Numbered from the stretch's first letter, positions 19,934 through 37,992 are shown. The stretch: 45,662 nucleotides of DNA from Gammaproteobacteria bacterium (GCA_020050845.1 JAGVJZ010000030.1:1-45662); one strand, 5' to 3'. A program made the numbers and translations. The notes: generated by a model not told the origin, from the sequence alone.

Positions 19934-20473
19934 TCAGCATCCATCATCGGCACTAACTCGATATAAAACATATTCACTCAACCCCTTCGCATGCGCAAAA
20001 TCAGGATGAATAAAATTTTCAGCAACTGAATGTATCATTCCAAGCTTTTCCATTATCCTTCTAGATGGAAGATTATTAGCAGAACAAAATGCAACAATCT
20101 CTTTAATGCCATGCCTCTTAAACGCCTCATGCAAAACAGCATCAGCAGCTTCAGTAGCATAACCATTGCCCCAATGTTTAGCAGCCAAACGCCAACCAAT
20201 GCTCACACTAGGAATAAAATGAGCCTTAAAAATAGGATTATAAATACCGGTATAACCGATAAATTCTTTAGTGTCTTTTAGAGTAACAGCATATAATCCA
20301 TAACCATAACTTCTGTAGTGAGCTGCAATTAAATTTAATAATTTTTGAGTGCCCTCTAGATTTAAACATTCTGGAAAATATTGCATCACTCTAGCATCCT
20401 GATTTAATGCTGCAAATGGCAACAAATCTTCTTCCTGCCACGTTCGCAACATCAGACGATTGGTAATTAACAT
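19934..20473 (-). CDS. GNAT acetyltransferase, RimJ/RimL-like
   Basis: Start re-called at ATG 20473 after GAGGAAGAGG; TNRLMLR, IGWRL..WGNGYATEAA, NLPSRRIMEKLGM. Confidence 0.88.
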   Translation of the reverse strand: MLITNRLMLRTWQEEDLLPFAALNQDARVMQYFPECLNLEGTQKLLNLIAAHYRSYGYGLYAVTLKDTKEFIGYTGIYNPIFKAHFIPSVSIGWRLAAKHWGNGYATEAADAVLHEAFKRHGIKEIVAFCSANNLPSRRIMEKLGMIHSVAENFIHPDFAHAKGLSEYVLYRVSADDGC

Positions 20474-20498
20474 GATCCTCTTCCTCTTATACTCGAAA

Positions 20499-21707
20499 TT
20501 AAAAACTAAGCGCCAATCTCTCAAACCCAGAAAAAGCTAAACTATGATGTTTTCTGACTGGCGCAATATTTATATCAATGGAAAGTTTTGGAAAATTCTG
20601 TATTAATTCTAGAAAGCATAGCCTCATTTCTTGCTTAGCTAATTTAGCCCCTAGACAATAATGTCCACCATACCCATAGCTAATTTGTTTATTATTTGTT
20701 CGCGTTAAAATGCATTCATCAGGATGATCAAATTGTTTAGGATCGCGATTTACCGCATGAGTCGAAATAAACACCACGTCTCCTGCTTTGATTGTTTCAA
20801 GTCCAACTTTAGCATCTTCTTTTGCAACCCGAAAAATAAATGTTACCGCAGGATCAAGCCTATTAAGTTCATCTAATGCGTTATCAATGTAGCCAGGCTC
20901 TTGCCACAATTTAGCTTTTACTTCTTGATGACACATCAAGGTATACAAGTTATTACACATCTGATCAGTAGTTGTCACTTGACCAGCAACTAACATCATA
21001 ATTGCTTGTGAAATTATTTCTTCCTCATTCAACCCAAAAGCATCTTTGTGCTGGATTAGGATTGATAAAAAATCATTTTGAGGCAAATTTTTTCTTTGTT
21101 CGATTAACCCTCGAAAGTAATTTTTAAGTTTAGATGCACTATTATTAACTTCTACTCCATCCTCATTAGTGTAAGAAGATGCACCACCAAAAAACTGAGT
21201 CATATTATTGGACCAGCAATAGAAATCTTCTCTTTCATTTCCTGGGATACTAAAGAATTCAGCCAAAGTAATTGACGGAATCATTTTGGCAAAATCAGCA
21301 ACAAATTCAATTTGATTAACTTTCTTACAGCGAGCCAGCTGATTTTGAATAGTTGTTTTAATAAGTGGCACGAGTTTATCTAAGCTTTGATTGCTAAAAC
21401 CATCGTAACAAATACGTCTTCGATTTGTAAATTCTGGATAGTCGCTCATGACCATCATTTTGCTGACAACTGCAAAAAAATCTTGTATTAATTCCAAATT
21501 CAGATTTGGCATACGACTTACAAAAAATGGTGTTCGATCACAGCTAAAATTTGGATTAGTCAATATATCTTTTGCAACATCATAGGCCGTAATTACCCAG
21601 AAATTTCCCGCTGGCCACCAGAATATGTTACCCATATCTTGAAGCAAATGAGCGAAATCTTCAGGCGTATTATTTATTTTCATTTCCATCAAACTTGGTT
21701 GCGTCAT
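20499..21707 (-). CDS. Cytochrome P450
   Basis: Heme motif YGYGGHYCLG; ExxR (ELNR); I-helix AGQVTT; NRDP. Confidence 0.95.
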   Translation of the reverse strand: MTQPSLMEMKINNTPEDFAHLLQDMGNIFWWPAGNFWVITAYDVAKDILTNPNFSCDRTPFFVSRMPNLNLELIQDFFAVVSKMMVMSDYPEFTNRRRICYDGFSNQSLDKLVPLIKTTIQNQLARCKKVNQIEFVADFAKMIPSITLAEFFSIPGNEREDFYCWSNNMTQFFGGASSYTNEDGVEVNNSASKLKNYFRGLIEQRKNLPQNDFLSILIQHKDAFGLNEEEIISQAIMMLVAGQVTTTDQMCNNLYTLMCHQEVKAKLWQEPGYIDNALDELNRLDPAVTFIFRVAKEDAKVGLETIKAGDVVFISTHAVNRDPKQFDHPDECILTRTNNKQISYGYGGHYCLGAKLAKQEMRLCFLELIQNFPKLSIDINIAPVRKHHSLAFSGFERLALSF

Positions 21708-21726
21708 TTAAAGCCTCTTATTTTGA

Positions 21727-22521
21727 TTAATTTAATATTTGAATTCGACGAAGATGTCGTGGAGAAATTTTCGCAAAAGCATTACGAGCATGGAGCAAGG
21801 AAAAATTATCAGCAAGTAATAAATCATCATCTTGCCACCTATGCACATAACAAAATTGTTGATCATAACAGCGAGCCGCTAGATTCGAAATTAACTCATC
21901 AGAAGTTCGCCTATCAAATCCAACAACGCTGACTTCTACCGGATTTAATAGATCTTTAGCAACAGGTTCAGCAAAGCGCAAAATAGGTACCGCTTTATCG
22001 GGATGTTGCTGTATAAGTGGAACCTCGATATTGCCACCATAATGAACAATTTTTTCAGTTTTATATTTAAGTGTTAATTTTCCCCAGAACATTTGTTGAT
22101 CGAGAGCTAGAGTTTTACAAATCGATTCGGTATCCGCAAACAAGGTCTCGCCACCTGAATTAGGTAGTGGTGGTTCAATACAATTGAACAATAAATACTG
22201 AGGCTCTTTGTGAAATGCGCCATCCCAATGAAAAGGCACATGGGCTTCAGTGAAAAGATAGTTCTTGGGATTCTCGCTTACTTTCATCTCCATTACTGCT
22301 CCGAACTCCCATTCAAGAAGCTGCCCTAAAGTATTTGCATATTGACGAAACTCAATTTTTGAAAAGCTGTTAAATCCTCTAAATAGCACGATTTTATGAG
22401 CTCTAACTAAGTACAAAATGATGTCTCTACTTAGTGATAATTTTGTATTGACAGCAATTGGCATGATGCATATACCAAATGGTTGTAATGGTAAAGTGCT
22501 ATACTCTGATAGATTAAGCAT
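21727..22521 (-). CDS. pvcB: PvcB/IsnB-type Fe(II)/2-oxoglutarate dioxygenase (TauD family)
   Basis: LFRGF; HWD and DN..LLHAR facial-triad motifs; adjacent to isonitrile synthase; ATG 22521 preceded by GGAGG. Confidence 0.88.
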   Translation of the reverse strand: MLNLSEYSTLPLQPFGICIMPIAVNTKLSLSRDIILYLVRAHKIVLFRGFNSFSKIEFRQYANTLGQLLEWEFGAVMEMKVSENPKNYLFTEAHVPFHWDGAFHKEPQYLLFNCIEPPLPNSGGETLFADTESICKTLALDQQMFWGKLTLKYKTEKIVHYGGNIEVPLIQQHPDKAVPILRFAEPVAKDLLNPVEVSVVGFDRRTSDELISNLAARCYDQQFCYVHRWQDDDLLLADNFSLLHARNAFAKISPRHLRRIQILN

Positions 22522-22542
22522 GTATCGATCCTCCACCAGTTG

Positions 22543-23496
22543 TTAGTCTTTGTATAAGGTAGTGAAAAAACGTTCATTAACGAAAACGGGTTTGGCACCC
22601 AAGGCTTTAGCAACTTTATGCTTTACTAATCGATAATCGTTGCCGATCTGTAGAACCACCGAGTGCCAAGGAGTTACCCAAACGTTATCGCTTTGCAGTA
22701 GCATGATTCCAAATTTTTCTGAGCCGCACATTTGAGGATGTATTGATAAACGAATAGCACCTTTAAATGTGTTACTAATTAAGTTACTCCAGGCATTACT
22801 TCGCTGGATAACCTGATAGGCTATTGTTTTAGAAGCTATTCTTAATTTATTTTTAGAAAGCAAAGTGTTTGTATATCGTAAATCTTCATAGATAAATCGA
22901 TGTATACCATTAAATAGTCGGAGATCTTTTTCGTGTGCTTTAATATTACTAGCAATGATTTCAATACTATCGCCAAAATGCTGCTGCAAATCGCTACGCA
23001 TTTCGTCGTAGGAATCCTTCTGATAGAAATCTTCTAGATTATAAGTTAATAGATTAGTTAATTGCCGTGATTTAATGATGTGCGCAATGTCCTGAATGTA
23101 TGCGGTTACTTTTTCATCACTGATATTCAATAAGTCATTAAAGACTCTACCATCTGAACAAATAATAATTTGTGCGCCAGGCGGGTAAATTGATTTAATT
23201 TCATTACATATTTTATTTAGGTGATATAAAGACAGTTTTTCGCCAAAATCAGGCAAATATCCTGCTGTTTTTTCAGCATTAGTAGATTTGGCTGGAAAAG
23301 CAGGAAGAATAAAAATTATTTTATCGTACCCTTGAATGAAATTTTTAACTTTCTTTTCTAATGAAATAGAACAATCGCAAAAGTGGTCATAATTGCACTG
23401 GTCTTGATCAAGAAATTTTCTACGGTTTTCTAACAGGAGACATGTAATTTGTTCAACTGTAGCATGGATCATATCTTCTCTTATTCTACTTTTCAT
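22543..23496 (-). CDS. pvcA: Isonitrile (isocyanide) synthase, PvcA/IsnA/Dit1 family
   Basis: LPAFPAKS.N..K..G.LPD.GE; ICSDGRVFND; RSNAWS; IRLSIHPQ; TPWH. Confidence 0.92.
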   Translation of the reverse strand: MKSRIREDMIHATVEQITCLLLENRRKFLDQDQCNYDHFCDCSISLEKKVKNFIQGYDKIIFILPAFPAKSTNAEKTAGYLPDFGEKLSLYHLNKICNEIKSIYPPGAQIIICSDGRVFNDLLNISDEKVTAYIQDIAHIIKSRQLTNLLTYNLEDFYQKDSYDEMRSDLQQHFGDSIEIIASNIKAHEKDLRLFNGIHRFIYEDLRYTNTLLSKNKLRIASKTIAYQVIQRSNAWSNLISNTFKGAIRLSIHPQMCGSEKFGIMLLQSDNVWVTPWHSVVLQIGNDYRLVKHKVAKALGAKPVFVNERFFTTLYKD

Positions 23497-23560
23497 ATAT
23501 CACCCTTGGTATTTGCTAAAAATATTTTAGTTGCCAGGTAGATATATGTAAAATATAATA

Positions 23561-23581
23561 AAACTATGTTTGTCATAGTTT
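23561..23581. promoter_or_regulatory. Putative LysR binding site (T-N11-A palindrome)
   Basis: AAACTATG-TTTGT-CATAGTTT, about 65 bp upstream of the synthase start in the divergent intergenic region. Confidence 0.7.
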
Positions 23582-23607
23582 AAATTTATAATAGCTTAGA
23601 GCTTTTT

Positions 23608-24456
23608 ATGTTGCCTTCTTCCACTGATTTAACTTATTTTATAGAAGTTGCGAATACTCTAAACCTTTCACGAGCGTCGGAAAGGCTGGGGATTAGTCAA
23701 CCATCATTATCATTGTCAATTAAACGGCTTGAAGATATTTTAGGTGCCATCTTATTAATTCGGCATAAAAGAGGGGTTAATCTAACGCAATCCGGGAAGC
23801 AATTATTAAACCATACGCGACAACTACTGCAGCAATGGGAGGACATGAAAACTCAAACCCTTGCATCTCAAAAAGACATTCAAGGCTACTACACACTTGG
23901 TTGTCATCCTTCGCTAGGAAAATACATCCTGCCATTTTTCCTGCCGCAGCTTATTCGCAATTATCCGAAATTAGAAATTCACTTAAAACATGATCTGTCT
24001 CGAAAGATAACTGAAGAAGTGATTAGCTTGAATATCGATATTGCAATAGTCGTTAATCCAGTGCGCCACCCTGATTTAATTATTTATAAGTTATTTAATG
24101 ATAAAGTTATGCTATGGCAAAACAAAAAACTGGTAAAGATGAAAAATCCACCTCTCATTTGTGACCCAGAATTACTGCAATCTCAATCAATTTTGAAACA
24201 GCTGAAGACGAAACAACTTTCCTACGAACGAATGATAACTTGTAATAATCTTGAAATCATTGCAACGCTGGCTGCTAAGGGTTGCGGCGCTGGAATTTTG
24301 CCAGAAAGGGTAGTGAAATCAACCTACCCGACATTATTAAATCCAGTTAGTGATTCACCTATCTTTAACGATAATATCTGCCTCATTTATCGACACGAAA
24401 ACAGGAATGTCCTTGCTATTCAAACTATTATTGCGGCTATAAAAAAATATTGCTAA
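23608..24456 (+). CDS. LysR-family transcriptional regulator
   Basis: N-terminal HTH LTYFIEVA...SRASERLGISQPSLS..IKRLE; 282 aa; divergent from the isonitrile genes. Confidence 0.95.
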   Translation: MLPSSTDLTYFIEVANTLNLSRASERLGISQPSLSLSIKRLEDILGAILLIRHKRGVNLTQSGKQLLNHTRQLLQQWEDMKTQTLASQKDIQGYYTLGCHPSLGKYILPFFLPQLIRNYPKLEIHLKHDLSRKITEEVISLNIDIAIVVNPVRHPDLIIYKLFNDKVMLWQNKKLVKMKNPPLICDPELLQSQSILKQLKTKQLSYERMITCNNLEIIATLAAKGCGAGILPERVVKSTYPTLLNPVSDSPIFNDNICLIYRHENRNVLAIQTIIAAIKKYC

Positions 24457-24530
24457 TTATTTTAATTACTGAAAAAAGGACATATATAAAATTATGCAAT
24501 TTTATTGATTTATTTGCTATTTTCGAGCTC

Positions 24531-24559
24531 TTGAATATGGTACTAAAAAATAGTACTAT
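24531..24559 (+). promoter_or_regulatory. Putative hicAB promoter with operator palindrome
   Basis: TTGAAT-17-TACTAT; GTACTA-N5-TAGTAC palindrome (24540-24556) in the spacer/-10. Confidence 0.55.
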
Positions 24560-24567
24560 ACTGTATT

Positions 24568-24828
24568 ATGAAGATTCAAAGCAAACATAAAAAAGTCTTG
24601 GAGGATATATTTCATAACCCTATAAAATCTGGGGTTATCTGGATAGAAATAGAAACTACGCTATTAGCTTTGGGTGCTGAGATATCAGAAGGGCGCGGCT
24701 CAAGGGTACGGATAGCTTTAAATGGTGTCAGGGCAGTTTTTCATAGACCACACCCTAAAAAAGAAACTGATAAGGGAGCTTTGAAATCTATGAGACGATT
24801 CTTAACTGAAGCAGGTATAAAAAAATGA
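24568..24828 (+). CDS. hicA: HicA-family toxin
   Basis: 86 aa; W.EIE..L..LGA...EGRGSRVR...FHRPHP; overlaps hicB by ATGA. Confidence 0.9.
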   Translation: MKIQSKHKKVLEDIFHNPIKSGVIWIEIETTLLALGAEISEGRGSRVRIALNGVRAVFHRPHPKKETDKGALKSMRRFLTEAGIKK

Positions 24829-25160
24829 TGACTTATGAAAATTATATAGCTCACGTTGAATTTGATGATGAAGCTGAAATTTTCCATGGTGAAGTGATAA
24901 ATACACGAGACGTCATTACGTTTCAGGGCAAGAGTGTAAAAGAGCTGAAAAAGGCTTTTATCGATTCTATAGAAGATTATTTGCAGTTTTGCGCTGAGCG
25001 TGGAGAAGATCCTGACAAACCCTTCTCAGGGAAATTTAACCTTCGGCTTGACCCTGAGCTACATCGTGAGGCAGTTATTGCTGCAAAAGAAGATGGATTG
25101 AGCTTAAATCAATGGGTAGCAGAAGCAATAACGCATATGTTACATGAAAAACATATGTAG
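24825..25160 (+). CDS. hicB: HicB-family antitoxin (RHH C-terminus)
   Basis: FHGEV....DVITFQG.SV.EL..AF..SIEDYL; PFSGKFNLRLDPELH...SLNQW. Confidence 0.92.
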   Translation: MMTYENYIAHVEFDDEAEIFHGEVINTRDVITFQGKSVKELKKAFIDSIEDYLQFCAERGEDPDKPFSGKFNLRLDPELHREAVIAAKEDGLSLNQWVAEAITHMLHEKHM

Positions 25161-25192
25161 GAAGAGAAAATCGATTTAAATAAGCTTCATAC

Positions 25193-26656
25193 TTAACCTC
25201 TCGTTCGTGTCCGATCAACCGCTATTAACCATTGTTGATACAACTTCTCAGCTTCTTTCGGAGCCATATTTGGCCTAAATGTCTCCACAATCGAGGCTAA
25301 AGCCGACACATCCGATAGCTTTTTAATATGACCGGTTGCCAGAAGTGTCAAATAGGCAGCTCCTAATGAGGTCGCTTCTTTATTGGCGCTCACTCGAATT
25401 GGGATTTGCAACAAGTTCGAGATAAATTGCATTAACCAACGATTCGCAGTAACCCCACCATCGAGCTTTAATGATTCTAATTTGCAAACTGTCGCTAAGG
25501 GTTGTATTAGATCTTTAATCTGGTAGGCAATCGCTTCTAAACCAGCGCGAGCTAAATGCGCACATTCAGTCTCACGGGTTAAACCAAATATTGCTGCCCG
25601 TGCCTGCGGATCCCAATAAGGTGCACCTAAACCGGTAAAAGCTGGGACCAGATAAACACCACCGTTATCTTTAAGATTCGCAGCGAGTTGTTCAGTTTCT
25701 GATGAGGAACTAATGATCTTTAGTTGGTCTTGCAACCACGTAATAATTGTCCCAGCAGAGAAAATACTTCCCTCCAGTGCATAGCAAACTGTATGGTCCA
25801 CCTCATAAGCGATCGTGTTTAATAAATCCGTTACATTCTGGAGCTCTCCCCCGGTATTGATCATCAAGAAAGAACCTGTACCAATGGTACATTTGGAATC
25901 AAATGGATTCACACATCCTTGACCAATCAAAGCGGATTGTTGATCGCCAACCATTGCTACAATGGGGATAGCATCGCCAAATAACTCTTTTGTGGTGTAG
26001 CCAAATTCTGCACAATTTGACTTAACTTCAGGAAGCATTGATTCGGGAATATCAAACAGCTGCAGTAATTCAAGATCCCATTTTTTTTCTCGAATGTTAA
26101 ATAACATTGTCCTTGAGGCATTGGTGATATCGGTGACGTGGACTTTTCCTGCCGTCAAGCGCCACAACAGATAGCTATCAATCGTCCCAAATAATAACTG
26201 CCCTTGCTGTGCTTCGGACTGCGCAGAATAGTGGTTTAAGATCCAATGAATTTTGGCTGCGGAGAAATAGGGATCTAATAACAAGCCTGTTTTGTAACGA
26301 ACCTGTGCTTCGTGCTGGTCTTTTTGTAGATCTAAACAAAACTGTGCCGTGCGTCGATCTTGCCAAACAATGGCATTACCTAAACTTTTACCGGTTGTTT
26401 TATCCCAAACGACTGTTGTTTCGCGTTGGTTGGTAATACCGATCGCAATAATCGCAGCGGGTGAGTATGTTAAAACTTTTTGACAACAAAGTCGTACAGC
26501 TGTCCAAATTTCATCAGGATCGTGCTCAACCCAGCCAGGCTCGGGAAGAATTTGAGTGAATTCTAGCTGTTCTGTCGCTTTCACTTGTCCACGCAGATCA
26601 AACAACATTGCTCGAACGCTGGTCGTCCCTGCATCGATGATAAGTATCCTTTCCAT
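25193..26656 (-). CDS. glpK: Glycerol kinase (FGGY family)
   Basis: IDAGTTS; GITNQRET; VWQDRRT; DPYFSA; GDQQSAL; PAFTGLGAPYW. Confidence 0.93.
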   Translation of the reverse strand: MERILIIDAGTTSVRAMLFDLRGQVKATEQLEFTQILPEPGWVEHDPDEIWTAVRLCCQKVLTYSPAAIIAIGITNQRETTVVWDKTTGKSLGNAIVWQDRRTAQFCLDLQKDQHEAQVRYKTGLLLDPYFSAAKIHWILNHYSAQSEAQQGQLLFGTIDSYLLWRLTAGKVHVTDITNASRTMLFNIREKKWDLELLQLFDIPESMLPEVKSNCAEFGYTTKELFGDAIPIVAMVGDQQSALIGQGCVNPFDSKCTIGTGSFLMINTGGELQNVTDLLNTIAYEVDHTVCYALEGSIFSAGTIITWLQDQLKIISSSSETEQLAANLKDNGGVYLVPAFTGLGAPYWDPQARAAIFGLTRETECAHLARAGLEAIAYQIKDLIQPLATVCKLESLKLDGGVTANRWLMQFISNLLQIPIRVSANKEATSLGAAYLTLLATGHIKKLSDVSALASIVETFRPNMAPKEAEKLYQQWLIAVDRTRTRG

Positions 26657-26663
26657 AGATCCC

Positions 26664-28334
26664 TCAAGTTAATTTGAATAACCCGTGTTCCTTTTCATAC
26701 CATACACCACCAGATTCAGAATATATTGAATCCTGATATAGATCATCTGAAAAATCGATCTTAAAAAAGTCGCCATCTGCAGCAACAGGCAATAGTCTTC
26801 TACCAATAGAAACAGATAGCTCTTTTAGAGACTTTAAAAAGGACCAAAGATTTGTAATGGAAGATTTTGGTATCAAAATACCAGTAAACCCATCATCGCC
26901 ACCGAAGTCACTATAGAATTCTACATCTTTGATTGGCACTTCTTTGGTTAAAAGCATTCGAATTAACTTATCACCATCTGACATACCAAGTCTCTTTTTG
27001 ATTCTGTTTACAACATTTTTCTCAGAAGAATCAAAAAAATCAGTTCTTGGCACATTATTTTGTATTAATAATGCTCTTTCCTCATCCGTAAGTTCGGACA
27101 GTGCCCTGGCAAATGCCGCAGGGCCACTGTCTTGGTCTGAGCCATGAATGAAACGCTCTGCTGCTGGAAAAAAATTATCTGGTCTACTCTCGTCCATTTC
27201 GTCGTTTGAGAAATCGTTATTAATTATTGATCCTTGGAAAAGTGAAAATGTTGTCGAACAAACCCATTCAACAAAAATAGTAAGGTTCATTAAAGATCGG
27301 TAAAAAAAGCCACCTCTTTCATTGTTGTCTCTTGGTTCGATTCCATGGTTCATAGCTTGTAAACGCACAAAATTTAGGAGGCCCTCAGAATTAGATGCTC
27401 TACTCGAACGTTCAAAGTGTTCAGGCAGACAATATAAGATAGTAGACGAAAACAATAAGAACCATAGTAATAACGCGTGCTCGTCTAGTTGTGCGTTACT
27501 GTTTGAATTTGAATCAGAGAAGCAAATTGCTTTTGGTTTTGAGTAGGCGGAACCAAGACGATATTTTTGTAGATCATAACGAAGTCTCTTTTGGGAATCA
27601 CCGAGTACTTCGAAAGCTGCTGCAATCTTTATAAAGTTAGAGAGCGCCTCAGGACTGCTGTTCTTGTCAGGATGAAATCTAAGTGCAAGTTGTTTATATG
27701 CGGTTTTTATATCCGCAGTACTTGCAGACGGCAAGACATTTAATACTTGGTAATGATCTTGACTATATGGGTTTGTCGAAAGGCTACTAGCCAGGTCACT
27801 TTTACTAGGATCGACCACCGCAACATCTAATCGTCTAATAGGGTGTTCAAAGAAAACTCTTTGCTGATTTTTCTCTTTTTCAGCTTTTTTCCTTTCTTCA
27901 ACGGCAAGCTTGGGAACGGGAACTTCAATTTTATTACCAAACTTTGACTCAATTTCTGCATACAATTCTTTCATTTTTTCTGGAGATTTAGAGATTTTTT
28001 TTAAATCTCTATTTGCTAGTTCTTTTGCAAATCTTGCTATCTCGGGAAACATCTCTTTTAAATATAACTGCGCTTTTTCAGCACGGGGCCTTACATTGCC
28101 GTAAAAACCCTCAACTATACCATCGTCAGAAATATGAGGCTGACAGAACTCGCGTCCCTCACCTGAGCAGTGACAAGCTAGTTCCACAAGCCCTAGGGAT
28201 CCAGAAGGAGAATAGATGGCAAAATCTAATCTTAAGGCCGTAATAATATCTCCTGGATGAAAAATATTACGTGTTTCTTCACTCCAGCCAGTTGTTTTCT
28301 TTGTAGTTTTTGCTTCGCTAGGTGCATGCATCAT
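26664..28334 (-). CDS. Orphan protein with internal DnaJ (J) domain
   Basis: DHYQVLNV...IKTAYKQLALRFHPDKN...F..I..AFEVLGD..KR.RYD in mid-protein; flanks unrecognised; no G/F or zinc-finger region. Confidence 0.85.
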   Translation of the reverse strand: MMHAPSEAKTTKKTTGWSEETRNIFHPGDIITALRLDFAIYSPSGSLGLVELACHCSGEGREFCQPHISDDGIVEGFYGNVRPRAEKAQLYLKEMFPEIARFAKELANRDLKKISKSPEKMKELYAEIESKFGNKIEVPVPKLAVEERKKAEKEKNQQRVFFEHPIRRLDVAVVDPSKSDLASSLSTNPYSQDHYQVLNVLPSASTADIKTAYKQLALRFHPDKNSSPEALSNFIKIAAAFEVLGDSQKRLRYDLQKYRLGSAYSKPKAICFSDSNSNSNAQLDEHALLLWFLLFSSTILYCLPEHFERSSRASNSEGLLNFVRLQAMNHGIEPRDNNERGGFFYRSLMNLTIFVEWVCSTTFSLFQGSIINNDFSNDEMDESRPDNFFPAAERFIHGSDQDSGPAAFARALSELTDEERALLIQNNVPRTDFFDSSEKNVVNRIKKRLGMSDGDKLIRMLLTKEVPIKDVEFYSDFGGDDGFTGILIPKSSITNLWSFLKSLKELSVSIGRRLLPVAADGDFFKIDFSDDLYQDSIYSESGGVWYEKEHGLFKLT

Positions 28335-28373: not shown

Positions 28374-28506
28374 TGCCATTCCAGCGCAAGCTCATCATAG
28401 GGATCAACTTAAGTATTTTTTCCCTTCTCCCACTGTGGGAGAAGGTGGCCGAAGGCCGGATGAGGGATAACCCTGAAGTTGAAGCCTATGAGCAGCTGGA
28501 ATGACA
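28374..28506. mobile_element. Nested miniature element: dRS3-like arms > 18-bp TIR element > BoxC-like repeat
   Basis: Outer TGCCATTCCAGC/GCTGGAATGACA (11/12); TIRs CATAGGGATCAACTTAAG (28396-28413)/CTGAAGTTGAAGCCTATG (28473-28490, 15/18); inner repeat 28421-28467. Confidence 0.65.
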
Positions 28507-28614
28507 CAGTAGCCACGCTAGTACTGCGCAGGATAATGGTCTACTGACTCATGTACATAATATACAAATTGCACTTTATGGCAAATAGAATTATTATTTT
28601 TTACCTAAAAAATA

Positions 28615-29634
28615 ATGGCGGAGCAAATGAAAAAAATTAACAGACTTTATTACTCTATTTGGGATGTCTTGGGCCTTGGGAAAAAAATACAAGATGCACC
28701 AACCGGGTATACTGAAGATGGCTATCATTATCACGATGGCGCCAATGCGGATCGTGTTGTTGTGACCCGTGGGCACGTTGGCTACTACGATGTTTTTCCA
28801 AAGCATCAATTCTTAGGAGCCCTCTATCATTTTGCAAAAATGGGCAAAGCTTTAAGTGAAGCTTTTAAACCCTACCAATCGTCTGGAAAAATTAAACGCG
28901 ATTTGCTCCAGCCCGTAAATGGGGTAATTAACATTGCCAAAGGACTCGTGATCTTAGTATTTAGCCTTCTTGCAGCGGCATTGTGGACTGCAATTTTACC
29001 ATTCGCTTTGCTCTTGAGTTTATGTCTATTACCAATTTGTTTGTTAGCCATGACCGCACCTTTTTTCGTAAAGGCAATTTACCCCATTAGTTGGTTTATC
29101 GAAGGATTGACTACTGTGATCAGAGGTGTGGCTCAAGTAGGCTGCACACCATTGGCTTACCTTTTCGAATTGCCGTTCAGAGGCGCAATGACTTTTTCAG
29201 GTTCACTAGAGGTTGCAGAAGATAAACCTGAAATTCAAAGATTGGTTACCGAGGCAGAAGGAAAAATAAAATCACTAGTTTCTGTTTCAGAGGTTAAGGG
29301 GATGTCCTGGGATGACGTTAATCTTGCTGAACGGGAAGCGGCATCATTGCTATTTGAAATACAGAGAAAATATTCTAAGTCCGTTAATGAGGGTTGGCAT
29401 ACGCGCCATGATTCGCTCGATATTGCAGCTCACTATACGAGCTATTCAAGTTTCTTTCCTGCTTTCAAAGCCGCAGCGGAAAAACCTTATCAGTGGCGTG
29501 CTGAAACTAAATACCCACCTAAAATAGCTAATGAGACACAAAAGGAAGCTCTTGCGTATTTAGAATTTTATAAAGCTTCAGGCCGACGTGACCCAGAAGA
29601 AAGAGACTCACTACTTCGAACTGCTACCCTATAG
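28615..29634 (+). CDS. Hypothetical membrane protein (long central hydrophobic hairpin)
   Basis: 339-aa ORF with about 45 contiguous hydrophobic residues; no family recognised. Confidence 0.75.
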   Translation: MAEQMKKINRLYYSIWDVLGLGKKIQDAPTGYTEDGYHYHDGANADRVVVTRGHVGYYDVFPKHQFLGALYHFAKMGKALSEAFKPYQSSGKIKRDLLQPVNGVINIAKGLVILVFSLLAAALWTAILPFALLLSLCLLPICLLAMTAPFFVKAIYPISWFIEGLTTVIRGVAQVGCTPLAYLFELPFRGAMTFSGSLEVAEDKPEIQRLVTEAEGKIKSLVSVSEVKGMSWDDVNLAEREAASLLFEIQRKYSKSVNEGWHTRHDSLDIAAHYTSYSSFFPAFKAAAEKPYQWRAETKYPPKIANETQKEALAYLEFYKASGRRDPEERDSLLRTATL

Positions 29635-33311: not shown

Positions 33312-34829
33312 ATGCAGGTAAGACTACTTATGGCTCTAGATAATACAGAGATAATCGAACAAATTGGGAACAACACTCCTTCTTTAAGTTCTGCATATCT
33401 ACATAAACTGGATGAAGCTCAAAAATCAGCTTTAATAAAAGTTCTTGAAACGAATACCAACCTCAAAACTTTAAATCTCGTATTTAATAACTTCACCGAC
33501 GCCGAAGTAGAAGGATTAGGCAGAGCCAATATCCGTTCACTTATTATTTCGGGCAATAAACTAGGTGATCGAAGCCTAATTTATGTGCTAGCTAATCCTA
33601 ATCTTACCAACCTAGTAATTGAGCATAACCGAATCTCAGCTCTGGGGGTCGAAACTTTAGCTTCATTCTCACAGCTCACTATTTTGGATATCAACCGCAA
33701 TTTTCTTAAAGATGCGGGAGCAAAAATTTTAGCCGGTCATCCATCGCTAACTCACTTAGAGGTATCTGCCAATGCCATAACAGATGACGGCATCATCGCT
33801 CTTGCTACCAACACTCGACTTCGCACCCTTCACGCGAGCGAAAATCTGATTACATCCGATGGAGTTAGAGCTTTAGCTAGCAATACTGGCCTTACTAAAC
33901 TTCATCTGCGTGAAAATAATATTCAAGCTGAAGGAGTTCTAGCATTTGCATACAATACGAGTCTGACTACTCTCAATATTGGGCGCAACAAAATAACAGC
34001 TGTGGGAGCAAGAGCATTAGCTGCAATGGCACGATTGACCACGCTTTTGGTTGATTCCAATGAAATGAATGGATATGGAGCACATCTTCTAGCACAAAGT
34101 ACCTCTCTAACTTCCTTGCACCTTGATAATAATCAAGTAGACGGTTTAGGAGCTAACTCTTTAGCGAACAGTACCAATTTAACCCTACTTTCTCTTTCTA
34201 CCAATCTGATCGAAGATCCAGAAGCTATAGCTTTAGCAAAAAATTCTTCGCTGACCGATCTTAATCTTAATAGTAACTGCGTTGCTCGTGCTGGCGCTAA
34301 AGCTCTCGCTAGAAATACGACGCTGACTAGTCTTGCGCTTTATGAGAATGAAATTGAAGAGGAAGGAGCACAAGCATTTGTTGAGAATAGACACCTTACT
34401 TGTCTTTTTCTAAAAAGTAGCAAGATAACGAAGGAAAGAACACAACAAATTCTGCATATCACGCATTTAAATAAAAAAGCTAATGAATTACGATTTATTG
34501 AACAAGTTGTTGAGATTGCAAAAGGTTGTAGACAATCACAACAATCACACTGGCGACTGCTACCAAGTGATGTAGTGCTTATTATTCTTCTTTATTTAGC
34601 GGGAACTAATTTAAGTCCACGCGAAACGATTACGAAAACATGTTTGTTTTTGCTCACCACAATTAGAACCTCTTCTGAAGGTCAATTAAATTGGAATTCC
34701 AACAGCCAAAAAAGTACATTTTTTAAAGTGTGGGATGTGCAAAAACTTAAAGAGGTTAGAAGTCGCTTTCCTCAAATAGAAACGGCAGGTGCAACATCTT
34801 TAGATAAACACCTGGCCCCGAGCATGTAA
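33312..34829 (+). CDS. LRR protein with C-terminal F-box-like module (start may be ATG 33330)
   Basis: GALA-type repeats; WRLLPSDVVLIILLYL...KTCLFL...GQLNW...STFFKVW. Confidence 0.9.
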   Translation: MQVRLLMALDNTEIIEQIGNNTPSLSSAYLHKLDEAQKSALIKVLETNTNLKTLNLVFNNFTDAEVEGLGRANIRSLIISGNKLGDRSLIYVLANPNLTNLVIEHNRISALGVETLASFSQLTILDINRNFLKDAGAKILAGHPSLTHLEVSANAITDDGIIALATNTRLRTLHASENLITSDGVRALASNTGLTKLHLRENNIQAEGVLAFAYNTSLTTLNIGRNKITAVGARALAAMARLTTLLVDSNEMNGYGAHLLAQSTSLTSLHLDNNQVDGLGANSLANSTNLTLLSLSTNLIEDPEAIALAKNSSLTDLNLNSNCVARAGAKALARNTTLTSLALYENEIEEEGAQAFVENRHLTCLFLKSSKITKERTQQILHITHLNKKANELRFIEQVVEIAKGCRQSQQSHWRLLPSDVVLIILLYLAGTNLSPRETITKTCLFLLTTIRTSSEGQLNWNSNSQKSTFFKVWDVQKLKEVRSRFPQIETAGATSLDKHLAPSM

Positions 34830-34985: not shown

Positions 34986-36434
34986 GTGTCGAAAAGTAAT
35001 TTAGAAATTATCGCACAAGTTAAGAGCAACGAAGTTCAGTTAACGTCTGTCGACATTCAGAAATTGAACGAGACTGAGATGACATCTCTAGTAGCGGCTC
35101 TTCAAACTAATACTCGACTTAGCTCGTTGAATATCACTTATAGCACCGTCACAGATGCAATTGCGCTAGGATTAGGTCAAGGCAATTTTAGTACCCTTAT
35201 CGCTTGTGATTGTAAAATAAATGATGACGGATTTATCCGTTTACTTAACAATACAAATCTCACGAGCATGACACTCACAAGTAATCGTGTCTCAGAACAA
35301 GGAGTACGAACTTTATCTCAACATACTCAACTCACTTCTTTGGATATTAGTCACAACTTTCTTAAGGATGCAGGATCAAAAATTGTTGCTGATCATCCCT
35401 GCCTTACTCATCTAGAAATAGGTGGTAACATGATTACTGATGAAGGCATAAGAGCACTCGCAAAAAACACCCAACTTTGTAGACTTTATCTCTACGAAAA
35501 TTTATTTACATCGGATGGAATTAAAATGCTGGCGAATAATTCGCAACTAACAACTCTTAATGTTGGCAGTAGCATGCTTAAAGCAAGTGCAGCGCAAATT
35601 TTAGCTACAATGGGAAGTCTTACGTCACTCTCTATTCAAACAAATGAGATCGAAGATTCAGGAGCGTTAGCACTAGCTACAAATAGTAATCTCACTAGAC
35701 TTGATGTCTCCGGTAATGTAATTAGGGACGCAGGAGCCCAAGCTTTAGCTACTCTTAACAATCTCAAAGTTCTTTTGATTGCAGGAAATTACATCGGTAA
35801 TGTTGGCGCCAAAGCTTTAGCAAATAGTACCTGTCTAACACACCTTGATCTGGGCAACAACATCATCACTAATGAGGGTGGGATGGCCCTTGCCAAAAAT
35901 ACCTGCCTAACTCGTCTCCACCTTTCTGGTAATGGTATCAATGATGAGGGGGCAAAATTATTTGTTCAAAATAGGCAGCTCTTTTTTCTTTCTTTATCTA
36001 CCCATAACAGTCAGATTAAAAGAGAAACTACAGAACTAATTACCCGTTGCACTCATTTAAACAAAAAAGTCAAAGAATTACGATTAATTGAGCAAATCAT
36101 TGAGATTGCAAAAGGTTGTAGAATTTCACAAACTTCTCCATGGCGGCTCATACCAAATGATATAGTGATCATTATTTTTCTCTATATAGCTGGAACTAAT
36201 CTGCGTTCAGATAAACAGATTGCTCAAACCTGTTTATTTTTGCTAGCTACAATTAGACCATCGGCTCAAGGTCAATTAAACTGGAATTCAAACCGTCATA
36301 AAAGTACCTTCTTCAAAATGTGGAATGAACAAGAGCTTATAGATGTTAGAAGTCGTGATACTCAACCAGAAATAGTTGGAGCCGTGAAATCCAGTACAAT
36401 TATTTCTGAAACAAATTTTTCACTTAACATGTAA
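34986..36434 (+). CDS. LRR protein with C-terminal F-box-like module (GTG start)
   Basis: GALA-type repeats; WRLIPNDIVIIIFLYI...QTCLFL...GQLNW...STFFKMW; GAGG upstream of GTG. Confidence 0.9.
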   Translation: MSKSNLEIIAQVKSNEVQLTSVDIQKLNETEMTSLVAALQTNTRLSSLNITYSTVTDAIALGLGQGNFSTLIACDCKINDDGFIRLLNNTNLTSMTLTSNRVSEQGVRTLSQHTQLTSLDISHNFLKDAGSKIVADHPCLTHLEIGGNMITDEGIRALAKNTQLCRLYLYENLFTSDGIKMLANNSQLTTLNVGSSMLKASAAQILATMGSLTSLSIQTNEIEDSGALALATNSNLTRLDVSGNVIRDAGAQALATLNNLKVLLIAGNYIGNVGAKALANSTCLTHLDLGNNIITNEGGMALAKNTCLTRLHLSGNGINDEGAKLFVQNRQLFFLSLSTHNSQIKRETTELITRCTHLNKKVKELRLIEQIIEIAKGCRISQTSPWRLIPNDIVIIIFLYIAGTNLRSDKQIAQTCLFLLATIRPSAQGQLNWNSNRHKSTFFKMWNEQELIDVRSRDTQPEIVGAVKSSTIISETNFSLNM

Positions 36435-36466: not shown

Positions 36467-37885
36467 ATGTTAAAAGATTCGATCGAAAAACATATTCAAA
36501 ATATTACCACTTTGTCCCACTTAAACTTAGAATCCCACGAAGTTGAAGATGCGGATGTCGCTATATTTGAGGCACTTAGAACAAACACCTTTATTACCTC
36601 TCTTTCTGTCAGCCATAATCAACTCGGGGAAAAGGGTGCAAAGTCGTTGGCGGCTATCCCTCACCTAGTTTTTATTGACCTCGGCGGCAATAGAATTGGT
36701 ACAGAAGGAGCCATCGCTTTCGCAAACCATCCCACCTTAAGATCTTTAAATATTGCCAGTAATGATGTTGCGCCTTCAGGAGTTAGGGTAGTTGCAAGTT
36801 TTACCTCTCTCACGTCTCTTAATGTCGGTGACAACCACCTAGATATTGAAGCGGTCCAAGCTCTAGCTAACCTGTGTCGCGTAAAATTTTTGTGTATTTC
36901 ACGTTGTGATATTAATGATCAAGAGACTTTGATCTTAGCGCAAAACACCCACCTCACAACACTTGATATCGGATTTAACAAAAAGATTACTACTGAGGGA
37001 ATCGCAGCGTTAGCTAACCATCCTAGTTTAACCAAACTTATAATAATGTGTTGTTCAATTAACGATCCAGGGGCCAAAATTTTAGCCACTGCTCTTCGCC
37101 TCACCTATCTCGATGTTAGTCATAATCAAATTAGGAAAGAAGGAGCATTGGCTCTTGCTAAGAATACCAACCTTACCTCCCTTCATATTGGTACGAATCC
37201 TATCCAAAACGCGGGGGTCAAGTTTTTAGCTACTAATACTAATTTAAGGGACCTTTCTGTCTTTGCAACTGAAATAGTAGATGAAGGGGCAATGGCTTTA
37301 GCTAGTAATACCACCCTGACGAAATTGTGTGTTAGTGGCAATCAGATTAGAGATTATGGAGCATGGGCATTTTCGAAAAATAAGACTCTCGTGAGTCTTG
37401 ATGCCAACAGCAACAGAATCGAAGACGAAGGCGCACAGGCGTTAGCATGTAATAACAGTCTTACTTATTTAAATATCTCTAGTAATTTAATTTCACAGGA
37501 AAAAGAGACTTCTGTTCAATTCGCCATCTCGCTAAACAAGAAAGCCAACGAATTACGATTTATTGAACAGGTTATTGAGATAGCAAAGGGTGGTAGGTCT
37601 TCACAACCACTATGTTCCTTTCCAAATGATATCTTAATCCTTATTCTTTCTTTAGTAGCTGGCAGCACTTTAAGAAGCCCACGGTGTGTGGCTGACGTTT
37701 GTCTATTTTTATTAGCAACTATTAGGCCTACCAAGAAAGGTGAGTTAAATTGGGGAACAGCTGCAAATAAAAGTCTATTTTTTAAGAAGTGGGATGATCA
37801 AGCACGTAAAGAAGTTGAGCAGCGTTACACTTTTATAGTACCAAAGCCTCCAACTAAAGGACCTACTTGGTGTGCGACTAGTTAA
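36467..37885 (+). CDS. LRR protein with C-terminal F-box-like module
   Basis: Contains the literal EGALALAKN repeat; FPNDILILILSLV...DVCLFL...GELNW...SLFFKKW. Confidence 0.9.
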   Translation: MLKDSIEKHIQNITTLSHLNLESHEVEDADVAIFEALRTNTFITSLSVSHNQLGEKGAKSLAAIPHLVFIDLGGNRIGTEGAIAFANHPTLRSLNIASNDVAPSGVRVVASFTSLTSLNVGDNHLDIEAVQALANLCRVKFLCISRCDINDQETLILAQNTHLTTLDIGFNKKITTEGIAALANHPSLTKLIIMCCSINDPGAKILATALRLTYLDVSHNQIRKEGALALAKNTNLTSLHIGTNPIQNAGVKFLATNTNLRDLSVFATEIVDEGAMALASNTTLTKLCVSGNQIRDYGAWAFSKNKTLVSLDANSNRIEDEGAQALACNNSLTYLNISSNLISQEKETSVQFAISLNKKANELRFIEQVIEIAKGGRSSQPLCSFPNDILILILSLVAGSTLRSPRCVADVCLFLLATIRPTKKGELNWGTAANKSLFFKKWDDQARKEVEQRYTFIVPKPPTKGPTWCATS

Positions 37886-37903
37886 CTTTTCATAAGCTTT
37901 TTT

Positions 37904-37992
37904 TCCCTCATCCGGCCTTGCGCCACCTTCTCCCACAAGTGGGAGAAGGGAGAAAACTTAAGTTGACACCTATGCGCCTGCGCAGGGAGTGA
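37904..37992. repeat. Composite repeat: inverted BoxC-like unit + TIR end + dRS3-like half
   Basis: TCCCTCATCCGGCC..GCCACCTTCTCCCACAAGTGGGAGAAGGGA, then CTTAAGTTGACACCTATG (37957-37974), then CGCCTGCGCAGGGAGTGA. Confidence 0.7.

Follow-up and report, generated by a model that had tools for sequence, protein, structure and literature searches.

We describe a five-gene locus in a 45,662-nucleotide stretch of DNA from a gammaproteobacterium (GCA_020050845.1, JAGVJZ010000030.1:1-45662; the whole stretch is called the window below), and consider it reasonably probable that the locus is an operon under LysR control whose core, a conserved IsnA-IsnB-P450 cassette, makes a tailored isonitrile. A listing of the open reading frames (ORFs) and Pfam and NCBIfam scans of the window found all five genes intact. 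Four of them lie on the minus strand, in the order of an IsnA/PvcA-family isonitrile synthase of 317 amino acids (22543..23496), an IsnB/PvcB-family Fe(II)/2-oxoglutarate (Fe/2OG) oxygenase of 269 amino acids (21727..22536), a cytochrome P450 of 402 amino acids (20499..21707) and a PA3944-like GNAT acetyltransferase (19934..20473; Acetyltransf_3, 126 bits). The fifth, a LysR-type transcriptional regulator on the plus strand (23608..24456; HTH_1, 66 bits; LysR_substrate, 83 bits), diverges from them across a control region of 111 nt (23497..23607). The gaps are 6 nt between IsnA and IsnB, 19 nt between IsnB and the P450, and 25 nt between the P450 stop and the ATG of the GNAT. The original prediction, made from the sequence alone, had claimed a divergent LysR gene followed by a tightly spaced synthase, Fe/2OG oxygenase, P450 and GNAT; Pfam domains confirmed this composition at the coordinates given, and gaps of 6-25 nt confirmed the spacing. 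The order LysR, IsnA-IsnB-P450 is that of the cassette of isnAB, P450 and regulator found in Legionella.

The main evidence for this reading is the conservation of the three genes together. We scanned about 185,000 genomes, one per species, with an alignment of the P450, obtained 66 loci and identified the neighbouring genes by tblastn with the window proteins; the alignment was rich in Legionella and distant members may have been missed. The loci belonged to Legionellaceae (23), to Coxiellaceae or other gammaproteobacterial metagenome-assembled genomes (MAGs; 4), to Pseudomonadota MAGs (2), to Bdellovibrionota or Oligoflexia (31) and to six others (Candidatus Uabimicrobium, Plesiocystis, Scytonematopsis, Parachitinimonas, a Kangiellaceae MAG and an unclassified MAG). 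IsnA was matched in 57 of the 66 loci and IsnB in 62. Nine loci gave no IsnA match, and in eight of them the contig broke off at most a few hundred bases from the P450 or IsnB. All three genes occurred together in 57 of the 58 testable loci, 53 of these 57 having them in the contiguous order IsnA-IsnB-P450; the sole locus lacking both IsnA and IsnB in the middle of a contig (L067) had a partial P450 match. Among 149 scored genomes of a Legionellaceae sample, every full-length P450 orthologue (21/21) was located 0.8-1 kb from IsnA on the same contig and strand. Judged by this linkage, the P450 is predicted to belong to the isonitrile pathway and not to be an incidental neighbour. The pairing of P450 and synthase in the original prediction is upheld by these counts, and the lack of co-conservation that it had named as contrary evidence was not found.

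A LysR-like ORF flanked the cassette in 34 of the 66 loci, two representatives being confirmed by Pfam, and the unit of inheritance therefore appears to be the regulator and the IsnA-IsnB-P450 trio, without the GNAT. Few of the orphan isonitrile gene sets that we traced are conserved as widely as this cassette, which has members in several phyla. The genes downstream of it were variable in the sampled loci and included, by Pfam, Bax1-I, DUF924, TerC and major facilitator superfamily (MFS) proteins and an amine oxidase. A macrolide-type (GT1) glycosyltransferase adjoined the cassette in eight of the 66 loci, as in Bdellovibrio bacteriovorus (L066:10191-11360), which suggests that glycosylated products may be made in these predators. 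In the Bacteriovoracaceae-type cassettes of Bdellovibrionota, two families of ORFs of about 230 amino acids lay on the same strand directly after the P450 (10 loci, e.g. L044:10167-10868 and L048:10158-10865). They had no Pfam or NCBIfam match, were unrelated to the Bax1-I protein in other such loci, and are candidates for extra pathway genes or export/immunity genes.

The synthase gave a full-length match to PF05141 (DIT1_PvcA), with 252.7 bits against a cut-off of 26.4 over profile positions 1-265 of 273. Its score against the NCBIfam model of the L-tyrosine isonitrile synthase PvcA (TyIsonSynPvcA, NF045653) was 236 bits, below the 600-bit cut-off, so that the match establishes family membership only and the tyrosine substrate is a deduction. 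The best matches in the PDB were 9DHM/9DH4 (204 bits) and PvcA 3E59 (189 bits). IsnA is predicted to convert the amine of an amino acid, most likely tyrosine, into an isonitrile.

The oxygenase IsnB has a TauD domain (125 bits) and the iron ligands of that fold, its HWD motif and distal His aligning with His101, Asp103 and His250 of PIsnB, the metal ligands of the HxD...H type named in PMC9467999. Against the PDB it scored 170 bits with PvcB 3EAT and 167 bits with PIsnB 7TCL; an assignment to one or the other type by these scores was rejected, and the signature positions were used instead. According to the product rule of Chang and co-workers (PMC9467999), whose validation covered a single additional enzyme, Lys or Arg at position 107 with Asn or His at 188 marks formers of vinyl isonitriles (PIsnB type), and Leu107 with Cys188 marks formers of isocyanoacrylates (PvcB type). 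In our HMMER alignments the window IsnB had His at the position of K107 and Ala at that of N188 and matched neither signature, while in the same alignments the controls behaved as expected, with Leu and Cys in PvcB and Lys and Asn in PIsnB. Across 61 cassette IsnBs (the window and 60 loci), position 107 was His in 36, Tyr in 15, Phe in 5, Lys in 2 and another residue in 3, which makes His, Tyr or Phe in 56 of the 61; position 188 was Ala in 59 and Gly in 2. As a positive control, the IsnBs of a second kind of Legionellaceae cluster, called type 2 below, had the Arg and Asn of the PIsnB signature in 10 of 10 cases. The window IsnB was 35-53% identical to the other cassette IsnBs (48-53% in most Legionella loci), compared to 32-34% to those of type 2, and the type of IsnB tracks the presence of the P450. 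That the P450-linked IsnBs carry neither published signature, and so represent a third sequence type of this oxygenase, is the most notable new detail of this study. Such an atypical IsnB may lead to an outcome different from both of the known reactions.

The P450 matched PF00067 with 105 bits and has its haem cysteine in the motif YGGHYCLGA. In an alignment of 32 orthologues with a mean column identity of 66%, this cysteine (Cys351) and the E280 and R283 of the ExxR motif were invariant. The orthologues were 50-66% identical to the window protein and came from named species of Legionella, Fluoribacter and Aquicella and from uncultured bacteria. In a quick tree with SH-like approximate likelihood ratio test (SH-aLRT) support, the window P450 was placed at the base of a clade of 26 rows with a support of 100, which included 21 Legionellaceae and 4 gammaproteobacterial MAGs; elsewhere in the tree there were placements across phyla, such as Parachitinimonas inside Bacteriovoracaceae. 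The I-helix reads AGQVTT in the window and AGQ[VI]TT in the clade, compared to AG[HLY]ETT in BioI, PksS and 6L39, which were the nearest solved P450s by sequence (about 161-164 bits). The canonical acid-alcohol pair of this helix (A/G-G-x-D/E-T-T/S) is thus not present in the window P450. The I-helix acid helps proton delivery for O2 activation in ordinary hydroxylases, and its loss is known in several P450s of atypical chemistry. By our alignments the acid residue is missing across the P450 clade, and this is also a new observation here.

The AF2 (AlphaFold2) model of the protein had a mean predicted local distance difference test (pLDDT) of 82.3 and a P450 fold, with Foldseek TM scores of 0.85-0.90 to BioI. 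The nearest folds in the PDB were BioI, CYP107, CYP109, PksS, EryF and OleP, at 22-29% identity; this comparison of the model with the PDB gave no functional assignment and pointed to generic bacterial class I enzymes only. No redox partner for the P450 is encoded in the cluster; elsewhere in the genome there are one Fer2-domain match and one second P450 (G000:C16:5235-6371), whose Pfam score of 283.6 bits is far above that of the cluster P450.

From these features we propose that IsnA would convert an aromatic amino acid, most likely tyrosine, into the alpha-isonitrile, that the atypical IsnB-type Fe/2OG oxygenase would oxidize its side chain, and that the dedicated P450 would then tailor the IsnB product by a further oxidation, the order after IsnB being our deduction. 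For the P450 step we lean, with a confidence that falls a little short of even, towards oxygenation, on the ring or the side chain, of a monomeric tyrosine isonitrile. This is favoured because isnB is repeatedly followed at once by an oxygenase gene, the place being taken by a flavoenzyme in the type-2 clusters and in pvcABCD. Several points weigh against this proposal. The chemistry of this cassette family has no characterized example, and every reaction after that of IsnA is predicted. The analogy with the flavin monooxygenases is one of gene position only. Because IsnB fits neither signature class, its product cannot be forecast; vinyl isonitrile, isocyanoacrylate and hydroxylated acid are all conceivable. 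A P450 acting on an isonitrile is chemically awkward, since isonitriles are ligands of haem iron. The loss of the I-helix acid across the clade may be a sign of chemistry other than hydroxylation, for instance coupling, and the best NCBIfam match of the P450 was a cyclodipeptide-synthase-associated subfamily (148 bits against a 500-bit cut-off).

The last two points bear on the alternative put forward in the original prediction, namely that the P450 couples two tyrosine-derived isonitriles into a di-isonitrile resembling xanthocillin, hazimycin or dityrosine, such as a dimer that binds copper or is antimicrobial. Coupling could run through phenol or vinyl groups. The cyclodipeptide-synthase-associated subfamily includes aryl-coupling enzymes, the clade has lost the I-helix acid with the role given above, and a phenol-coupling P450, DmlH (8W6Z), was found among the fold matches, at rank 49. 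The combination of IsnA, IsnB and P450 also matches XanB with XanG and Dit1 with Dit2 by composition, and a P450 has been proposed as the dimerizing enzyme of the xan pathway (PMC5974471). However, the role of XanG as a dimerase is itself a proposal in that source, orthology to Dit2 or XanG is not to be expected, and the nearest solved P450s are hydroxylases such as BioI, PksS and the CYP107 and CYP109 enzymes. A ring hydroxylase fills the slot of the P450 in other bacterial isnAB clusters, and the glycosyltransferase in eight of the 66 loci recalls the glycosylated monomers of the rhabduscin type, with which a dimer would still be compatible. No computed feature specifically favoured a dimer over simple oxygenation, so the dimer of the original prediction was not substantiated and we regard coupling as rather unlikely; other chemistry takes the remainder of the probability.

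A further alternative is a four-gene pathway, in which the GNAT would N- or O-acylate the product or an intermediate of the P450, or would protect the producer by acetylation. The GNAT lies on the same strand, and its ATG at 20473, which gives a protein of 179 amino acids, sits behind a purine-rich Shine-Dalgarno-like run, GAGGAAGAGGA, 25 nt past the P450 stop. This ATG is most likely the start; the longer ORF, from a TTG at 20524, would overlap the P450 by 26 nt. There is no terminator-like site in the 25-nt gap, the G+C content at third codon positions (GC3) of the GNAT, 0.25, is like that of the cluster, and no relative above 32% identity was found in the four congeners or in one related genome, so the gene has no orthologue in the congeners and may have arrived with the cluster. 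On the other hand, tblastn found a GNAT homologue beside the cassette in none of the 66 loci, the sole match being 26% identical and about 5 kb away in L067, and Pfam found none among the scanned same-strand downstream ORFs of the sampled loci; five related Legionella loci had an unrelated GNAT downstream on the opposite strand. In the reverse comparison, in which the best metagenome-contig relative was 47% identical, no P450, IsnA or IsnB was found near relatives of the GNAT in 23 loci (18 from metagenomes and 5 from genomes). The closest solved relative is PA3944 (137 bits), for which we know of no established native substrate. PA3944 is reported to acetylate polymyxins (PMC8072286).

We consider the four-gene pathway unlikely. 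The GNAT, which the original prediction had counted as a member of the cluster, is a lineage-specific local addition, probably co-transcribed with the conserved pathway but outside it; given its GC3 and the uninterrupted gap to the P450, a local role in the pathway is possible. A neighbourhood in congener G002 (L080, G002:C14:29666-33103) has HicB and HicA homologues (67% and 57% identity) divergent from an adjoining ORF of 522 amino acids, whose N-terminal GNAT domain is 30% identical to the window GNAT. This neighbourhood resembles both ends of the cassette insertion in the window, and such a GNAT-HicBA arrangement may predate the cassette, the low identity of the two GNATs notwithstanding.

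It is highly improbable that the locus serves the synthesis of the siderophore pyoverdine, with a BioI- or PksS-like P450 of unrelated metabolism, as could be read from the names of homologues ('Pyoverdine biosynthesis protein', 'Biotin biosynthesis cytochrome P450', 'P450 PksS') and from the word pyoverdine in the Pfam family name, because PvcA and PvcB carry out isonitrile formation and desaturation (PMC9467999), BioI and PksS are only 26-29% identical to the window P450 in the Foldseek alignments, and the near-universal collinearity of the P450 with IsnA and IsnB speaks against an unrelated role; we rejected these names as inherited annotations.

The control of the operon was assessed in the 111-nt region between LysR and IsnA. 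It contains a perfect 8-bp inverted repeat, AAACTATG-N5-CATAGTTT, at 23561-23581, inside which a T-N11-A core extends from T23565 to A23577, and two overlapping promoter-like sites. The latter, on the plus strand at 23531-23559 (11/12) and on the minus strand at 23552-23524 (10/12), were the two best sigma-70-like matches in 18100-25300 and form a divergent pair. At least one comparable repeat, with a spacer of 3-9 nt, occurred in 964 of 20000 mononucleotide shuffles of the region (4.8%), and the repeat is thus only weakly beyond chance. No match to it was found across the 31 orthologous intergenic regions that were examined for a conserved LysR operator; the Legionella loci among them share another T-N11-A sequence, located at about the corresponding offset. 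Because such repeats arise in shuffled sequence at this rate and no conservation was found, the LysR box at 23561-23581 is a plausible candidate operator and not a demonstrated one. The T-N11-A site of the original prediction is present, but its significance is marginal.

The genome context suggests how the cassette may have reached this organism. The source genome is a draft of 1.08 Mb and 78% complete, and the window consists of ordinary chromosomal genes (sdh, suc, gltA, glyA, hemB, purL) interspersed with seven proteins of the LRR_6 family. A segment of about 7 kb (18199..25202) contains an LRR protein, the GNAT, P450, IsnB, IsnA, LysR and HicAB. The genes of this segment have a G+C content of 34-38%, the LRR gene 41%, compared to 43-45% for the flanking permease and GlpK genes, and GC3 rises from 0.25-0.34 in the genes of the cluster to 0.38-0.47 in those flanking it. 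In the sole congener with alignable flanks (G001), these flanks align at 74-87%, the permease (ending near 18198 in the window) being followed by a homologue of 28554-29569 and then by GlpK; the synteny comparison found no counterpart of 18199-25202 on that contig. The absence of the low-GC segment at this site in a congener is a new observation of this study. PF05141 was found in none of four genomes of the same genus (84-97% complete) and in none of 36 other genomes of the class. By its composition and its absence from the congener, the cassette was probably acquired by transfer within this low-GC segment. It is possible that the congeners lost it instead, and the comparison rests on draft assemblies, the window genome itself being incomplete.

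Some other features of the window may be of use to those who study this lineage. The HicA/HicB toxin-antitoxin pair (24568..25160, plus strand), identified by its HicA_toxin and HicB domains, adjoins LysR and has homologues elsewhere in the congeners. A dispersed repeat of about 51 nt marks the left edge of the low-GC segment (18202-18252, plus strand). The 1.08-Mb source genome contains 30 further matches to it, those at 28417-28471 and 37898-37955 in the window among them, and in congener G002 the repeat is present many times, in either orientation. Two of the copies bracket a stretch that is rearranged relative to G001, and the repeat may mediate rearrangements. The seven paralogous LRR_6 proteins (ribonuclease-inhibitor-like and of eukaryotic type), at 740-2221, 2517-4151, 4164-5429, 18325-19929, 33312-34829, 34986-36434 and 36467-37885, are packed into 45 kb of a small genome, and their abundance suggests a host-associated lifestyle. 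Such an LRR gene also lies right after the P450 in the closest relative of the cassette, that of a Coxiellaceae MAG (L002). The ORF at 26664-28334 encodes a protein of 556 amino acids, the sole recognized part of which is a central DnaJ (J) domain, and the ORF at 28615-29634 (339 amino acids) has no Pfam match and lies on the other side of GlpK in G001.

Natural products with an isonitrile group are ligands of metals and haem; some are antibiotics, some carry copper (chalkophores), and others inhibit enzymes of a host, for example the phenoloxidase of insects. Most of the bacteria in which the orphan cassette recurs are either intracellular in eukaryotes or predators of other bacteria, a distribution over the 66 loci for which we claim no statistical enrichment, and the window adds an instance outside Legionella, in a small genome rich in LRR genes. 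Together, the IsnB signature and the P450 I-helix predict a chemistry unlike that of the characterized pvc and isn pathways. It is conceivable, if somewhat doubtful, that the trio makes a structurally new isonitrile (a xanthocillin-like di-isonitrile, or an isocyano-coumarin or catechol formed through the P450 in place of a flavoenzyme) that serves as a metal-binding molecule or acts against hosts or prey. If this is true, the compound would be common to intracellular bacteria and to those that consume other cells. The value of the finding lies in the whole family, which is widespread and still without a known product; little is added to it by the GNAT or the LysR box. Expression of the cassette would have a real chance of yielding a new class of compounds.

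Several known systems are comparable to the window. The fungal xan cluster (XanB/XanG) and the yeast pair Dit1/Dit2 likewise combine an enzyme of the isonitrile synthase family with a P450 in a tyrosine-derived chemistry (PMC5974471). XanB, however, is a fused synthase-dioxygenase, whereas the window has separate genes, and no isocyanide hydratase or methyltransferase is present in the window cluster. Dit2 and XanG are fungal P450s, and their likeness to the window is one of composition, homology being compared at the level of the superfamily.

The bacterial pathways with known products differ from the window in their tailoring enzymes. In the rhabduscin clusters of Xenorhabdus and Photorhabdus (isnA-isnB-glycosyltransferase) and those of the byelyankacin type, the pair of IsnA and IsnB is shared, PIsnB 7TCL matches the window IsnB as given above, and the glycosyltransferase has its parallel in the eight related loci that include Bdellovibrio bacteriovorus. 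The window, in contrast, has a P450 and no PIsnB signature, and the domain scan found no glycosyltransferase among its ORFs of at least 120 amino acids. In pvcABCD of Pseudomonas aeruginosa, which makes paerucumarin, PvcA and PvcB are related to the window enzymes at 189 and 170 bits and the order is also that of a synthase, an Fe/2OG oxygenase and then a ring oxygenase. The differences are that no flavin monooxygenase of the PvcC/PvcD kind was found among the same scanned ORFs and that the window IsnB lacks the Leu and Cys of PvcB.

The type-2 clusters of Legionellaceae contain the 10 full-length IsnA copies of the 149-genome sample that have no P450 beside them, and in all 10 there is a divergent LysR followed by IsnA and IsnB. 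Their LysR proteins are 40-43% and their IsnA proteins 37-42% identical to those of the window, and an oxygenase gene again lies directly after isnB. Unlike the window, they have an IsnB of the PIsnB type that is more distant in sequence, as described above, a flavin monooxygenase instead of the P450, and additional MFS and ATP-grasp genes. In the two loci that were scanned, a FAD_binding_3 monooxygenase directly follows IsnB in the slot of the P450 and an ATP-grasp gene comes after it, with an MFS transporter between the two in one locus (L071). One genome (G187) carries both types of cluster, so their products probably differ and the types are probably not redundant. The isocyanide cluster of L. 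pneumophila reportedly leads to tyrosine vinyl isocyanide and N-acyl histidines. The type-2 layout matches what is reported for that cluster, and the Arg/Asn signature would be in line with the vinyl isocyanide attributed to L. pneumophila, a link that is second-hand and in which the species of the ten genomes is not established. Legionellaceae also contain a third, divergent PF05141 protein (144-151 bits; four matches; for example L078 and L079), which in the sole scanned locus, L078, lies beside a family-2 glycosyltransferase, and ORFs of 500-575 amino acids that match only the first 110-160 positions of PF05141, with about 60 bits.

The same gene set is known from Legionella, as the cluster 'L' that Tobias et al. 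reported in 2016 (PMC5126622), in which a helix-turn-helix protein and a P450 are described as 'always associated' with isnAB. Our ten full-length Legionellaceae IsnA copies without a P450 show that 'always' is too strong. The consulted part of that paper, published in PeerJ, reports no product for the cluster, and we found no characterized product of the IsnA-IsnB-P450 trio in the literature covered, which leaves out most subscription journals and the MIBiG database. The original prediction knew of no characterized bacterial cluster of this composition; this stands with regard to a product, but the composition itself was already in print. The window differs from cluster 'L' in that its organism is not Legionella, in that it adds the GNAT, and in that tblastn with its LysR gave no match (E <= 1e-5) to the regulator in most of the Legionella loci. 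The two agree in having a LysR-type regulator, IsnA, IsnB and the P450 in the same order, and the window P450 shares 54-59% identity with the P450s of named species of Legionella. The gene composition is thus one already published for Legionella, and the window is a further case of a known orphan family.

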